From an uncultured Candidatus Saccharibacteria bacterium (lineage in GTDB: Bacteria > Patescibacteriota > Minisyncoccia > Phycocordibacterales > UBA918), in contig CAYGLK010000001.1 of the NCBI GenBank assembly GCA_964350985.1, positions 391,698 to 455,697 on the forward strand: DNA of 64,000 bases, read 5' to 3'. The translations under genes were made by a program, and so were the position numbers. Shown here piece after piece: positions 6,310-62,967 of this stretch; the first letter of the stretch is position 1, and the number at the start of each line of letters is the position of its first letter. Below the pieces are notes generated by a model. It was given only the letters and a program-made list of their open reading frames with translations. It did not search any database and was not told the origin of the DNA.

Positions 6310-7047
6310 TTGTGCTATAATCAAAGATATATGTCTGAATTCCCAATGCGGATCAATAAATACATCGCCGAACAAAAAATCGCTTCACGTCGTGAAGCGG
6401 ATGTTTTAATTGCTGCTAAAAAGGTACGTGTTAACGGCAAAATAGCTGTTATTGGCCAAACTATCAATGAAGGTGACCAAGTAGAAGTCAAAGGTGCTAC
6501 TAAGAAATACGTATACTTAGCCTATTACAAAGGCCGAGGTATCATCACTCACTCCCCAACCAATGGTGAGATCGATATTGTTACTCGCCTACAAAAAGAC
6601 TATGGTCTGAAAGATCTCTCACCGGTTGGACGTTTAGACAAAGACTCTGAGGGTTTAATCATCATCAGTAACGACGGTCGGATTACTGGACCTCTTTGTG
6701 ACCCTGAAGCCAAGCACGAAAAAGAATACGAAGTAACTGTCAATAAACCAATCACGAGCATCTTTACCAAAATGATGGCACTAGGTGTAGACATAGAGGG
6801 CTACCGCACCAAACCAGCGCAAGTCAAAACGATTCCCAGAAGTGACAAACGATTTCTACTTACACTAACTGAAGGTAAGAAGCACCAGATCAGACGCATG
6901 TGCGCTGCTCTAGGTTACCAAGTACAATCGCTCAAACGAGTACGGATCATGAGTGTAGAACTAGGAACTCTAAAACCAAATCAATATCGAAAGATAAACG
7001 GTAATGATTTAAAAACCTTCTTAAAAGATTTAGATATTACATCTTAA
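6310..7047 (+). CDS. rRNA pseudouridine synthase (RsuA/RluB family); true start probably 6331 (MSEFPMRINKY)
   Basis: N-terminal S4 domain (RINKYIAEQKIASRREADVLI) and catalytic GRLDKDSEGLIIISNDG motif. Confidence 0.8.
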   Translation: MCYNQRYMSEFPMRINKYIAEQKIASRREADVLIAAKKVRVNGKIAVIGQTINEGDQVEVKGATKKYVYLAYYKGRGIITHSPTNGEIDIVTRLQKDYGLKDLSPVGRLDKDSEGLIIISNDGRITGPLCDPEAKHEKEYEVTVNKPITSIFTKMMALGVDIEGYRTKPAQVKTIPRSDKRFLLTLTEGKKHQIRRMCAALGYQVQSLKRVRIMSVELGTLKPNQYRKINGNDLKTFLKDLDITS

Positions 7048-7056
7048 ATATAAAAC

Positions 7057-7090
7057 AAAACCTTTGAGTCGACTCAAAGGTTTTGTTTTA
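7057..7090 (+). terminator. Rho-independent terminator after pseudouridine synthase gene
   Basis: aacctttgagtc/gactcaaaggtt hairpin followed by TTTTGTTTT. Confidence 0.6.
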
Positions 7091-7098
7091 ATTTTTTA

Positions 7099-7177
7099 TC
7101 TATCATGCATGATAGATAAAACTGAGGTCATATCATGCATGATATGAAGACTTAGATCGTATCATGTATGATACGAT
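7099..7177. repeat. Three phased palindromes sharing core ATCATGCATGAT (7099-7116, 7128-7147, 7156-7177; ~30-bp spacing)
   Basis: Read directly: tctatcatgcatgataga, tcatatcatgcatgatatga (perfect palindromes), atcgtatcatgtatgatacgat (imperfect centre); followed by further palindromes (atatcaaggttcgaccttgatat at ~7219-7241). Confidence 0.6.
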
Positions 7178-7284
7178 TAATTAATCGTTACAATTAAAGA
7201 GTCTGTCTCCTGTCTCCATATCAAGGTTCGACCTTGATATGACCTTGATGTAATAGAGTTTGCGTAGGGTTCTCCTTTGTAACA

Positions 7285-7316
7285 AAAAAGACGCGGCCGA
7301 AGACCGCGTCTTTTTT
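7285..7316 (-). terminator. Rho-independent terminator of typA
   Basis: gacgcggccgaagaccgcgtc hairpin flanked by A/T runs directly after the typA stop. Confidence 0.6.
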
Positions 7317-7331
7317 ATGTAATTAGTTTAA

Positions 7332-9113
7332 TTACTTCTTTCTTTCACTTTCCTTCAGCTTTGATTTTCGGAGACGAACGTTATGTGGCGTCACTTCTAG
7401 ATATTCGTCACCTGAAATGATTTCTAGACCAACTTCGATTGAAATAATTCGAGGATTGATTAGATTGATCGCTTCATCTGTTCCAGCAGAACGCATGTTT
7501 GTCAGCTGCTTTCCTTTAGTTGGATTTACAGTCATTTCTTCACCCTTACTAGTGTTTCCGATAACCATACCCTCGTAAACTTCTGTTCCAGCTGAGATAT
7601 ATAGCTGTCCACGGTCTTGGAGGCCATAAAGGGCAAAGCCAAGCGCTTTTCCTTGAACCATTGAAATCATAGATCCTACTTGTCGTTTCTTGATTTCTCC
7701 AGCATATGGTTGGAATCCTAATACTCGTGAAGCTAAGATACCTTCTCCCTTTGTATCAACGATAAATTGGTTCTTGTAGCCAAGCAGACCTCGTGTCGGT
7801 CCTTCGAAAAGAAGTCGAACCTGGTTTTCATGCATAATCATATTAGACATTATGAAGGCTCGGTTACCAAGACGTTCAATTACTGCTCCTTGGAATTCAG
7901 ATGGAATATCAATAGTCACTTCTTCAAACGGTTCCATTTTCTGTCCGTTTTCTTCTTTGATAATTACTTGTGGTTGAGATACAGAAAGCTCGTAACCTTC
8001 TCGACGCATGTTTTCAAGCAAGATAGCGATGTGCATTTCTCCACGACCTCGTACTTCATAAGAATCACCTTGTGAGAAGTCTACTTGCAAACCAACGTTG
8101 ATTTCAAGTTCTTTTTCAAGTCTTTCACGGATTTGACGTGAAGTAACATACTTTCCTTCTCGTCCAGCAAACGGTGAGGAGTTAGGCATGAACTGAAGTG
8201 CGATTGTTGGCTCATCTACAGCAATAGTTGGCAACGGCTCTGCAGTTTCGTCATCAGTTAGGGTATCTCCAATATTGATCTCTGAAAATCCAGCAATCAT
8301 CACAATATCTCCAGCAAAAGCTTCTGGTGTCTCTTGTTTCTGGATACCTTTGAAAGTAGACAGCTTTACAATTTTTCCTTTATTTATATTTGTCACTCCT
8401 TCGTGCTTAACAAACAGAGATTGATTAGCCTTCATCGAACCTTCATAGATTCGAGCTACAGCTAAACGACCAAGGAAGTTGTCGTACCCAAGGTTAAATA
8501 CTTGAGCTCGTAGTTTTTCTCCAGGAACATATTCACGGGCTGCTGGTACTTTTTCTAAAATAACATCAAGTAGTGGCGACAGGTCTTTTAGTTCATCATC
8601 CATCTTTCGTTTTGCTACACCATTTCTACCGATAGCATATACCACTGTGAAGTCTGATTGTTCATCGTTTGCCCCAAGTTCTAGGAAGAGTTCTAGTACT
8701 TGTTCTTCAGTTCGAGCTGGATCAGCTGCTGGCTTATCGATCTTGTTGATCACTACAATTGGCTTTAAACCGAGTTCTAGTGACTTTTTTAGTACAAACC
8801 GTGTCTGAGGCATTGGACCTTCTTGAGCGTCCACCACCAAGAGTACAGAGTCAATAGAACGTAGTACACGTTCTACTTCAGAACCGAAGTCGGCGTGACC
8901 AGGAGTATCAACAATGTTGATCTTTGTACCTTTGTATTCAACTGAGGTATTTTTGGCATAAATCGTAATACCACGCTCTTGTTCTAGAGCGTTACTATCC
9001 ATTGAAGTTGAACCATCACGAGCGCCAGTTTGCTCCATCAGAGCATCAGTAAGAGTGGTCTTACCATGGTCCACGTGAGCAATAATAGCGATATTACGAA
9101 TTTCCTTTGACAT
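7332..9113 (-). CDS. typA: GTP-binding protein TypA/BipA
   Basis: AIIAHVDHGKTTL G1 motif, DTPGHADF, NKIDK; 593 aa full length translational GTPase with BipA-type C-terminus. Confidence 0.9.
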   Translation of the reverse strand: MSKEIRNIAIIAHVDHGKTTLTDALMEQTGARDGSTSMDSNALEQERGITIYAKNTSVEYKGTKINIVDTPGHADFGSEVERVLRSIDSVLLVVDAQEGPMPQTRFVLKKSLELGLKPIVVINKIDKPAADPARTEEQVLELFLELGANDEQSDFTVVYAIGRNGVAKRKMDDELKDLSPLLDVILEKVPAAREYVPGEKLRAQVFNLGYDNFLGRLAVARIYEGSMKANQSLFVKHEGVTNINKGKIVKLSTFKGIQKQETPEAFAGDIVMIAGFSEINIGDTLTDDETAEPLPTIAVDEPTIALQFMPNSSPFAGREGKYVTSRQIRERLEKELEINVGLQVDFSQGDSYEVRGRGEMHIAILLENMRREGYELSVSQPQVIIKEENGQKMEPFEEVTIDIPSEFQGAVIERLGNRAFIMSNMIMHENQVRLLFEGPTRGLLGYKNQFIVDTKGEGILASRVLGFQPYAGEIKKRQVGSMISMVQGKALGFALYGLQDRGQLYISAGTEVYEGMVIGNTSKGEEMTVNPTKGKQLTNMRSAGTDEAINLINPRIISIEVGLEIISGDEYLEVTPHNVRLRKSKLKESERKK

Positions 9114-9216: not shown

Positions 9217-9477
9217 CTATTTGTCCATGCTTTTGATTAGAGACAACTTTGTTTGTCTAGGCAACTTACGTAATACTGCTTCCCTTCTAAAAGCCTCAAT
9301 TTTTGTCAGATCCTTTTCTTGATAAGCTAAAACCACAGGTCTTCTGGCTTTGGTGTACTTTGCACCAGTCGGAGCTGTATTATGGGCATGTAATCTCTTC
9401 TTAATATTGTTCGTGACACCAGTGTAGAGAGTATCGTCAGAACATCTAAGCATATAGACGGACCATTCTTTTTCCAT
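9217..9477 (-). CDS. GIY-YIG nuclease superfamily protein (UPF0213/YhbQ-like)
   Basis: WSVYMLRCSDDTLYTGVTNNIKKRLHAHN matches GIY-YIG motif. Confidence 0.75.
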   Translation of the reverse strand: MEKEWSVYMLRCSDDTLYTGVTNNIKKRLHAHNTAPTGAKYTKARRPVVLAYQEKDLTKIEAFRREAVLRKLPRQTKLSLIKSMDK

Positions 9478-10155: not shown

Positions 10156-10173
10156 GTGGGTTAATCATACCAA

Positions 10174-10209
10174 ATAAGAGACGCGCCCTAAAGGGCGCGT
10201 CTCTTATTT
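10174..10209 (-). terminator. Rho-independent terminator
   Basis: aagagacgcgccc/gggcgcgtctctt hairpin plus T-run downstream of 10238-10855 gene. Confidence 0.55.
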
Positions 10210-10237
10210 GTGTCGAAGTATAAATTTATCTAACTCT

Positions 10238-11443: not shown

Positions 11444-11545
11444 AGCACTTATTATACTACTCTAAGCTTTTATATAAAATGACTAAGATGTAATAGCAAA
11501 AAGCGGCAGAATCAAAGATTCTGCCGCTTTTTGCTATTTTTTAAA

Positions 11546-12265
11546 TTAATTTTCCGGTTCGATCTCTGTATTTGTCTCTCCAGTAACTTCAACTTCAGTT
11601 GTATCTTCGTCCTCCATGATAACTGATTCATCTTCAGATCCTTCATTTTCAACTTCCTCCTCAGATCCTTCATCTTCAACTTCTTCCTCAGTTACTTCTT
11701 CACCATCTGTATTTTCGTCTTCAGTCGAGTTCTCCATATCTTCAGTTCCTTCTTCCATTTCATCTTCTTCGGGAGCGACATAATCATCGACCACTTCTTC
11801 AACATGTTCCTCTACCACTTCAATAGTTTCATCCACGATAGTAGCTAGATTCTTCCCTCGATTACTTCCCTTTGCTTTCGGTCTTTCAGATTCTGGTAAT
11901 TTTAATACCTCTTGGTCAACAGCTACTAAAGTTGACTTATATTGAACCAGAACATCCTTGAGACGGTCTAATCCAGCAACCAACATCGCTCTTTGAGCAT
12001 CACTCAGCTTTACGTCAGCTTTTCCGTCAACACTTGCTTGAATAGAATCCAGACGAGTAAAGATTTTTGCTTGCGCTATTGCTGCCGCCTCTGGAGAAAG
12101 GGTTCCTGCTTGGACCTGTGCCTCAATCAGAACTAGTTCTGATTCAAGTTCTGTTATTTGCTCATCAACATTAGCTACATACTCTACTTCTGGACTGGCG
12201 ATAAAAAAGCTTACTGCTAAAAATAGCAGAAATACTGAAACCACCCCGATAATCACTTTATACAT
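11546..12265 (-). CDS. Membrane-anchored coiled-coil protein with strongly acidic (E/D-rich) C-terminal tail
   Basis: N-terminal TM; C-terminal ~80 aa almost entirely E/D/T/G. Confidence 0.4.
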   Translation of the reverse strand: MYKVIIGVVSVFLLFLAVSFFIASPEVEYVANVDEQITELESELVLIEAQVQAGTLSPEAAAIAQAKIFTRLDSIQASVDGKADVKLSDAQRAMLVAGLDRLKDVLVQYKSTLVAVDQEVLKLPESERPKAKGSNRGKNLATIVDETIEVVEEHVEEVVDDYVAPEEDEMEEGTEDMENSTEDENTDGEEVTEEEVEDEGSEEEVENEGSEDESVIMEDEDTTEVEVTGETNTEIEPEN

Positions 12266-14037: not shown

Positions 14038-14054
14038 TTTAAGATACGATAATA

Positions 14055-14087
14055 AAAACCTCCAAAGCAGAGCTTTGGAGGTTTTTA
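14055..14087. terminator. Bidirectional rho-independent terminator between convergent doxX and Nudix genes
   Basis: aaaacctccaaagc/gctttggaggtttt hairpin with A/T flanks. Confidence 0.6.
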
Positions 14088-14564
14088 TTATTTAACAAGT
14101 TCAAGAGCCGTTGAGGCGTATTTATAAACTTCGAGTGATAGTCTCTCGTCACTCGCTCTCATTTCCTCTAATTCATCTTTAGTGACCCAGACACACTTCA
14201 CTCCCTTATCAGCTTCGGTCTGCGGGATTATTTCTCTTGTATCTGATGTAGCTGCAAAGATAAAGGCTGAGTGATCATGATGATCATTTATCTTATGTCG
14301 ATTTACAAATATTGGCGGCACTAAGTCTATATTGGTCTCTGTATCAGTTTTTTCCCAACCTTTTGGTCCAATAAGCTTTACCTTTATACCTACCTCTTCC
14401 CAGGCTTCACGAAGTGCTGCTTCATTAGCGTCCTCGCCTGGGTCAATATGTCCTCCAGGACCAGTCCAGATGTCGTATTTTTCATGAAGTCTGAGCAAGA
14501 CAGCTCCTTCATTAACTACAAAAACTTCCGCACAAAGATCTATATAATAATTTAAATGAGCCAT
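14088..14564 (-). CDS. Nudix hydrolase
   Basis: Nudix box GHIDPGEDANEAALREAWEEVGI. Confidence 0.8.
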   Translation of the reverse strand: MAHLNYYIDLCAEVFVVNEGAVLLRLHEKYDIWTGPGGHIDPGEDANEAALREAWEEVGIKVKLIGPKGWEKTDTETNIDLVPPIFVNRHKINDHHDHSAFIFAATSDTREIIPQTEADKGVKCVWVTKDELEEMRASDERLSLEVYKYASTALELVK

Positions 14565-28231: not shown

Positions 28232-28249
28232 CTAGTAAATGATAAAATA

Positions 28250-28287
28250 AAATACCCTGACGGCGTAGCCGTCAGGGTATTTTATTT
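28250..28287 (+). terminator. Rho-independent terminator after rnj
   Basis: aataccctgacggc-gtag-ccgtcagggtatt hairpin followed by TTATTT. Confidence 0.6.
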
Positions 28288-40248: not shown

Positions 40249-40255
40249 AGAATAA

Positions 40256-40296
40256 AAAAGACCTCAGTTTCTCGAGAAACTGAGGTCTTTTTTTAA
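40256..40296. terminator. Bidirectional rho-independent terminator
   Basis: agacctcagtttctc-gagaaactgaggtct hairpin flanked by A6 and T7 between convergent genes. Confidence 0.65.
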
Positions 40297-62927: not shown

Positions 62928-62967
62928 GACACTAAAATAGCTAGCAAAAGCTAGCTATTTTAGTGTC
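62928..62967. repeat. Perfect 18-bp-arm palindrome (gacactaaaatagctagc aaaa gctagctattttagtgtc) abutting the tRNA-Gln 3' end
   Basis: Read directly from sequence. Confidence 0.7.

Follow-up and report, generated by a model that had tools for sequence, protein, structure and literature searches.

Between two convergent genes in a 64-kb window of contig CAYGLK010000001.1 (the window being the whole stretch of DNA analysed), encoding a pseudouridine synthase of the RsuA/RluB type and the GTPase TypA/BipA, three short palindromes follow one another at nearly regular intervals (H1, H2 and H3; Table 1), and the question raised by this locus is whether they are binding sites for a protein, parts of an RNA, or copies of a repeat. 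Proteins from metagenome-assembled genomes (MAGs) of Paceibacteria and Parcubacteria match the rsuA product at 55-77% identity, and the window therefore comes from a bacterium of the Candidate Phyla Radiation (CPR). We consider that the array is best explained as one cluster of a family of hairpin repeats, with stem sub-types, akin to the repetitive extragenic palindromes and bacterial interspersed mosaic elements (REP/BIME) of Proteobacteria, and lodged in an insertion-tolerant, terminator-insulated gap; our confidence in this reading stands about halfway. Occurrence in multiple copies, non-orthologous placement, invariance of the apex, compensatory changes in the stem and tandem duplication are all documented below. 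The family is small, being found in this Paceibacteria genome and a few related ones, always in intergenic positions, either singly or in tandem groups of two or three. Its repeat unit is a stem top, TATCA/TGATA, that closes a T-NN-A loop and stands on a variable but paired lower stem, the whole measuring 18-28 nt or more.

Copies of the hairpin inside and outside the window

The first-pass annotation had reported three palindromes with a common core and centres about 30 bp apart, and all three are present in the sequence. The bounds proposed for the second and the third were correct, but the first is a palindrome of 28 bp, not the shorter one placed at 7099-7116. Likewise, the core it proposed holds for H1 and H2 but not for H3, which carries ATCATGTATGAT, with a GT centre and one mismatch, and the motif that all three share is better written as TATCAT-NN-ATGATA. 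The centres lie at 7107.5, 7137.5 and 7166.5, that is, 30 and 29 bp apart as had been described, with spacers of 6 and 8 nt between the palindromes, and units 2 and 3 of the array are 79% identical, spacer included. Single hairpins fold as DNA at -5 to -8 kcal/mol (z -2.7 to -6.9) with loops of 4 nt, H1 being the most stable (-8.0 kcal/mol, z -6.9; covariance-model score of 37.6 bits).

The motif is rare by chance. With at most one mismatch, TATCATNNATGATA occurs three times in the window, always in this array, against 0.23 occurrences expected from shuffles; the 12-mer core of the first-pass annotation, at up to two mismatches, gives four matches against 2.87 expected, a count that is uninformative alone. 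No further AT-rich, non-terminator hairpin cluster was found within the window. In all, 15 exact TATCATNNATGATA sites were counted in 1.38 Mb of Paceibacteria loci, where about 0.4 would be expected by a base-composition estimate, and copies with one or two mismatches were not above shuffle level in these loci.

For the source organism, the DNA covered amounts to about 79 kb (the window and contigs L138, L143 and L150), and in it two loci hold five copies. The second locus is on L143, which we assign to the same organism as the window because it comes from the same sample and because its RecR product, P0123, is listed together with P0001 (the rsuA product of the window) and P0248 (RmuC) on one contig of 528,379 bp. 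There, two tandem copies occupy the 94-nt gap between dnaB and recR, with centres 23 bp apart, namely AGGTCG-TATCATACATGATA-TGACTT and TTTCG-TATCATGTATGATA-CGAAA. Their centres read AC and then GT, and the two copies are thus in opposite orientation; GC-centred copies are symmetric, and their orientation is unreadable.

Another Paceibacteria contig, L101, whose genes share synteny and 60-70% identity with named Paceibacteria loci, bears three copies in the convergent recR-rplU gap, just before a bidirectional terminator. Its array reads CATATCATGCATGATATG -11- TCGTATCATGTATGATACGA -5- CATATCATGCATGATATG, with centre spacings of 30 and 24 bp, and searches with RecR and RmuC place the source organism of the window among its closest relatives. 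H2 is identical to the first and third L101 copies over 18 nt and 91% identical to the first L143 copy over 23 nt, while H3 is identical to the second L101 copy over 21 nt (GT centre included) and to the second L143 copy over 20 nt. The L101 array (12036-12117) also forms a higher-order palindrome, in which the identical copies 1 and 3 can pair, copy 2 stands at the apex and GCCG/CGGC flanks the whole (DNA fold of -25.7 kcal/mol).

In a third organism, represented by L144, two AA-centred copies are located between the rmuC terminator and rplU, and its strain variants L146-148 have one copy each, with the centre flipped from AA to TT. The spacer between rplU and rmuC differs sharply among these contigs despite identical RecR (L144 6795-7300 against L146 2486-2740, and likewise L147 and L148): that of L144 has an extra hairpin and about 190 nt more, and the loop of the shared hairpin is flipped between identical arms. 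L014 and L028 add one copy each, the former in the divergent region between a sigma-factor gene and rsuA; a hairpin of the family type, its 17-bp stem including one G.T, immediately precedes the gene for a small GIY-YIG protein in L028. All 13 copies are intergenic, between open reading frames (ORFs).

A covariance model (R1) run over 1.4 Mb retrieved nothing beyond the training copies, and a scan of metagenomes for two cores returned 56 stretches that, except for L101, were all micro- or minisatellites or unrelated repeats. Among viral contigs, the two-core pattern gave one match, a microsatellite, and the three exact hairpins none; 60 single matches were obtained with three patterns whose NN centre was left free, and these are consistent with chance or generic palindromes, with one exception. 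That exception is phage contig L168 (IMGVR_UViG_3300023109_001582), at whose edge (118-176) a TATAAT box is flanked by two TATCAT-NN-ATGATA palindromes at a distance of 40 nt; they resemble the operator pair of a repressor, and a relation to the CPR hairpins is improbable. Four sediment metagenome contigs (L087 915-960, L108 1684-1728, L116 1636-1679 and L117 1021-1065) share another inverted repeat, some 70 nt in length, whose arms both contain ATCATGCATGAT (AGTTAGTAGTGGG...); it belongs to an unrelated repeat family. The literature searched held no report of the 14-mer and none of REP-like repeats in CPR bacteria.

Invariant apex and covarying stem

The 13 copies were placed in an ungapped alignment, and a stem of 12 pairs was scored against shuffles. 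The 12 specified bases of the apex are invariant in every copy, and all the other columns vary. Below the apex, the bases change and nevertheless stay complementary: 86.5% of the stem cells are paired, against 68.9% in shuffles (none of 500 shuffles reached the observed value), the covariation score is 0.446 against 0.148, and both sides have changed in seven of the 12 stem pairs. Pairs 12-29 and 13-28, just below the apex, are paired in 13/13 copies while using two and five pair types, respectively, and controls with a slid partner were only 20-42% paired. The covariation includes G-U pairs; a test of G.T against A.C by strand was uninformative, the copies disagreeing with one another.

The variation of the lower stem resolves into sub-types: 'CA' (H2 and L101 copies 1 and 3), 'CG' (H3, L143 copy 2 and L101 copy 2), 'ATG' (L144 and L146) and 'ATC' (H1). 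A pair consisting of a 'CA' or hybrid copy and then a 'CG'/GT copy recurs in three loci, with array spacings that vary from one locus to the next. A lower stem that keeps its pairing while changing its identity points to a hairpin in single-stranded nucleic acid, and not to a duplex operator, because a dimer that reads duplex DNA needs no complementary bases outside its half-sites. Selection for such a hairpin accounts for the stem pattern, and so does a mutational process that corrects palindromes, together with a recognised apex.

The gap between rsuA and typA

Convergent, and 284 nt long, the gap is among the four largest in the window, where most gaps are below 150 nt. As the first-pass annotation had it, the array lies between two convergent terminators, and the additional repeats that it listed to the right of the palindromes are present as well (Table 1).

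Table 1. Coordinates of the array, of the other repeats in the gap and of the flanking genes and terminators (positions in the window).
Feature	Position	Strand	Description
RsuA/RluB-type pseudouridine synthase gene	6331..7047	+	left flank, outside the element; Pfam S4 and PseudoU_synth_2; 238-aa product identical to P0001
T1, bidirectional intrinsic terminator	7051..7090	.	perfect 40-nt palindrome, then T run
H1, 'ATC' stem type	7094..7121	.	perfect 28-bp palindrome TTTTATCTATCATG-CATGATAGATAAAA; apex TATCAT-GC-ATGATA; lower stem TTTTATC/GATAAAA
29-nt tandem register that generated or links H1-H3	7101..7173	.	Tandem Repeats Finder, 2.5 units, 81% match; direct-repeat families D1 and D2
H2, 'CA/TG' stem type	7128..7147	.	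perfect 20-bp palindrome TCATATCATGCATGATATGA
H3, 'CG' stem type	7156..7177	.	ATCGTATCATGTATGATACGAT; 10-bp arms, asymmetric non-palindromic GT centre
Second palindrome type	7173..7188	.	ACGATTAATTAATCGT, includes TTAATTAA; overlaps right arm of H3
CTGTCTC x2	7203..7217	.	right-hand part of insert
Hairpin CATATCAAGGT-TCG-ACCTTGATATG	7217..7241	.	right-hand part of insert
Direct repeat GACCTTGAT x2	7230..7249	.	right-hand part of insert
T2, bidirectional intrinsic terminator, typA side	7284..7316	.	A run, 13-bp GC-rich stem, T run
TypA/BipA GTPase gene	7332..9113	-	right flank, outside the element; Pfam GTP_EFTU and BipA_C

The convergent layout of rsuA and typA is widespread in Paceibacteria and Parcubacteria, and the motif is not conserved at this site among 80 rsuA loci from GTDB genomes. 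In L002, L003, L139, L050, L058 and L059, one bidirectional terminator is shared by the two genes and the gap measures about 40-120 nt; L002, L003 and L139 belong to the closest relatives of the window (RsuA identity of 77-80%), with a gap of 37 nt in L139. At least eight other relatives have unrelated inserts of 0.3-0.75 kb between two terminators, mostly with small ORFs (among L002-L081, for example, L004 10669-11337, L053 10711-11464 and L051 6131-6892). Since some relatives have a shared terminator and others carry unrelated inserts, the gap is an insertion-tolerant site, or hotspot, across Paceibacteria. Relative to several of the closest relatives, positions 7095-7283 read as extra DNA. 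The right-hand part of this insert (7178-7283) had no similarity to any fetched locus, phage or plasmid, and the insert had no blastn match among phages and plasmids.

Two close relatives have palindromes of other kinds in the same gap. In L142 (80% RsuA identity), the gap comprises two terminators and an insert of 140 nt, in which a palindrome of its own, ACGATTAATCGT, appears twice (1112-1149 and 1184-1195), one instance being the apex of the rsuA terminator; ACGATTAATTAATCGT is its relative in the window, and both may represent another small palindrome family. L141 (79% RsuA identity) has, directly after rsuA and followed by T's, TATCTATC-ATCAGA-GATAGATA (2229-2250), which combines the lower stem of H1 with a different apex; it may represent an H1 orthologue in a decayed or ancestral form, acting as a terminator there.

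The same lack of orthology is seen at the other loci. The source organism appears to have a single terminator shared by recR and rplU, judging from the same palindrome that ends both L143 and L150, and the organism of L144-L149 (RecR P0122) has a recR/rplU gap of 45 nt and a dnaB/recR gap of 18 nt. L139, with its short rsuA/typA gap, comes from the same sample as L146, a recR contig of that organism. Between related genomes, therefore, the copies sit at non-orthologous positions.

Within the gap, the only small ORFs are TTG ORFs of 20-34 aa that overlap the terminators. The stem of T1 is 20 bp long, and long bidirectional terminators with an A run, a stem of 17-22 bp and a T run close many gene ends of the window, several as perfect palindromes (2385-2421, 10171-10210, 11492-11538, 14049-14091, 28245-28287, 40254-40293 and 62928-62967). 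Three Logan contigs of sample ERR3534985 end inside such perfect palindromic terminators, 33-34 nt after rsuA (L138, inside T1), recR (L143) and rplU (L150). Perfect palindromes, palindromic terminators included, thus break short-read assemblies of these genomes.

Besides rsuA and typA, the neighbours of the array in the window are a sigma-factor gene and a GIY-YIG gene; a small stand-alone GIY-YIG protein is conserved beside typA (window 9217-9477, L142 3248-3505 and L028 4367-4690). At 6312-6331, about 10 nt before the rsuA ATG of the 238-aa database protein, stands TGCTATAAT, an extended -10 box, whose position suggests that the rsuA mRNA is leaderless or has a very short leader, a layout similar to that before rplU in L150.

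Weighing the explanations

The REP-like option that the first-pass annotation had listed among several fits best, because the hairpins recur at non-orthologous intergenic sites, stand singly or in clusters, fall into stem sub-types and carry compensatory changes. As in REP/BIME, these are hairpin-forming palindromes of the 20-40-nt class, extragenic, in convergent or intra-operon gaps, alone or in small clusters; they comprise few sub-types, which in one cluster may alternate in orientation, as they sometimes do in BIMEs (the AC copy of L143 beside the GT copy), and their presence or absence differs between close relatives. The likeness has its limits: the stems here are AT-rich where those of REPs are GC-rich, and it is the apex that is invariant and the foot that varies, whereas REPs conserve the whole stem. 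The host differs as well, being a CPR bacterium with a reduced genome.

Under this reading, the functional form would be a single-stranded hairpin, as DNA during replication or transposition, or as RNA where a site is transcribed, and the apex would be recognised by a clade-specific protein. The family would multiply locally by tandem duplication, here in the 29-nt register, and would reach further intergenic sites one hairpin, or one pair of hairpins, at a time. Little transcription is expected at the array itself, because it sits between two strong bidirectional terminators; the locus would be largely insulated and presumably neutral, with no regulatory role for rsuA or typA.

Several observations weigh against such a reading. 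REP/BIME elements number tens to hundreds of copies per genome. The copy number here appears low, and two loci in about 79 kb do not amount to a high one; moreover, the apparent clustering of copies near rsuA and recR is uninterpretable, since the relative loci were chosen around those genes. No Y1/HUH transposase was seen among the 73 ORFs of the window by a crude HUH...Y regular expression, or among 16 flanking proteins by Pfam, and no gene for a REP-associated tyrosine transposase (RAYT) was seen in the part screened. The alignment (A2) has no conserved base beside the foot of the stem and hence no GTAG-like signal such as flanks REPs. H1 may predate the remainder of the array, having been inherited vertically instead of newly inserted, because L141 has its lower stem at the same place. 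Finally, the apex does not vary between organisms that share only about 70% RecR identity, and no degenerate copies occur, a pattern that suggests functional constraint more than the decay of a selfish repeat.

The Correia elements of Neisseria, the pneumococcal RUP and BOX elements and the Rickettsia palindromic elements are likewise intergenic, multi-copy, hairpin-capable and strain-variable, but they measure 100-200 nt, carry terminal inverted repeats and are bordered by target-site duplications; here, one hairpin (18-28 nt or more) makes up the unit, and neither termini nor duplications can be recognised.

An explanation as an RNA element, that is, a small RNA made between the terminators, or hairpins in untranslated or intercistronic regions bound by an RNA-binding protein or RNase as a stabiliser or processing site, is the strongest of the rivals, though we consider it unlikely. 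The array region folds far above shuffles on both strands (z -8.7 and -9.6), G-U pairs take part in the stem covariation, the extended stem of the first L143 copy takes two G.T wobbles on the sense strand of dnaB and recR, and the L143 and L101 copies fall within stretches expected to be transcribed with dnaB-recR or recR; in the window, the terminator at the end of the insert can serve transcription of either strand. However, fold scores of this size are trivial for palindromes, and the wobbles favour no consistent strand, those of L101 and L028 pointing to the other one. The array of the window is closed off by the 20-bp stem of T1 on one side and the 13-bp GC-rich terminator on the other. 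The only promoter matches in it (ATGATA-16-TATCAT) are by-products of the palindromes, as numerous as expected from shuffles, and Rfam returned only noise and two tRNAs, whether run permissively on 6500-7900 or at the gathering threshold on the whole window. Of the structured small RNA proposed by the first-pass annotation, the fold on both strands stands, and a convincing promoter and an Rfam match are missing. As for transcription termination, H1-H3 are rejected as intrinsic terminators: they are AT-rich and have no 3' T run (H1 has T's 5' and A's 3' on both strands), and the terminator scan called T1 only.

Slightly less probable still, in our judgement, is a duplex array, in which several dimers of a clade-specific regulator or nucleoid-associated protein would load onto TATCAT-NN-ATGATA as their operator or binding site. 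Twelve bases invariant across several genomes, with no degenerate copies, would suit such a site, and some copies lie in operator-compatible places (30-75 nt upstream of recR in L143, in the divergent region of L014 and upstream of rplU in L144); the pair around TATAAT in L168 illustrates that a sequence of this kind can resemble an operator. Nevertheless, the sites in the window and in L101 follow the 3' ends of two convergent genes; outside the core, the bases change and yet stay complementary, which a dimer on duplex DNA does not need; and no DNA-binding gene adjoins any array. The helical phasing that the first-pass annotation had stressed, with a dimeric-regulator or parS-like array among its candidates, does not survive comparison, the spacing being 30/29 bp in the window, 30/24 in L101 and 23 in L143. 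The positions are non-orthologous in relatives. On the same grounds of position downstream of convergent genes and differing between related genomes, the array failed as a transcription-factor operator.

Centromere and operator arrays (sopC of F, parS clusters and phage operator arrays) do share tandem, regularly spaced palindromes with an invariant core, but here there is no partition or repressor gene nearby, no conserved phasing, and the flanks covary; furthermore, this array is chromosomal and lies between housekeeping genes. The consensus of parS is TGTTNCACGTGAAACA, and the motif is unrelated to it, which removes the parS-like site of the first-pass annotation. A ParB-parS or plasmid centromere is thus rejected, on sequence, on the lack of partition genes nearby and on the lack of plasmid or phage similarity. 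The same fate befell the replication-terminus-like site, or dif, which would be single per replicon and located where the GC skew switches: the motif has at least two loci in one organism, and the GC skew is negative across the whole window and never changes sign. A CRISPR array, in which repeats of at least 23 nt alternate with unique spacers of about the same length, is rejected as well, with spacers of only 6 and 8 nt here and no Rfam CRISPR match above threshold.

It is improbable, in our view, that the palindromes are a neutral by-product of template switching and slippage in an unconstrained gap, unrecognised and without function. The tandem 29-nt register and the hypervariability of the gap in relatives would agree with this, and quasi-palindrome correction, an established mutational mechanism, can keep symmetry without selection. 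Such an origin, however, leaves unexplained why unrelated loci, both within this genome and in another one, carry identical hairpins of 18-21 nt, and also the invariant apex beside varying lower stems.

Lastly, an orphan miniature guide-RNA array of the TIGR type, suggested by tandem, regularly spaced short repeats that end near a terminator and by the existence of a stem-loop variant, is effectively refuted by its anatomy: TIGR-Tas systems, described chiefly from phages and parasitic bacteria with arrays of a dual-repeat or a stem-loop form, have units of 36 nt made of two alternating 8-12-nt repeats (edge and loop) and two 9-nt spacers, or, in the stem-loop variant, variable stems and large loops with spacers and box C/D motifs, beside an adjacent tas gene with a Nop domain (PMC12045711), whereas the array here has one 14-nt repeat, a unit of 29-30 nt, loops of 4 nt and three units only; the two differ in the length of the unit, the composition of the repeat, the size of the loop and the spacers. 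Furthermore, Pfam found no Tas/Nop-domain protein, recombinase or transposase among 16 ORFs within about 6 kb on each side.

If the hairpins are only a low-copy neutral repeat, their interest would be local. A bolder and rather doubtful extension is that TATCA-TNNA-TGATA is the site of a new hairpin-binding protein confined to a Paceibacteria clade, either a mobilising enzyme or a factor that binds RNA or single-stranded DNA, with the sites kept by selection and not as selfish repeats; if true, it would represent the smallest kind of mobile element in CPR bacteria, or a hairpin punctuation serving in processing, stabilisation or as a replication or recombination signal. The genomes of CPR bacteria (Patescibacteria) are small and compact, and are commonly considered to contain few repeats and little mobile DNA. 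In this context, a conserved multi-copy intergenic hairpin whose apex does not vary would be a handle on the plasticity of CPR genomes and on a nucleic-acid-binding factor.

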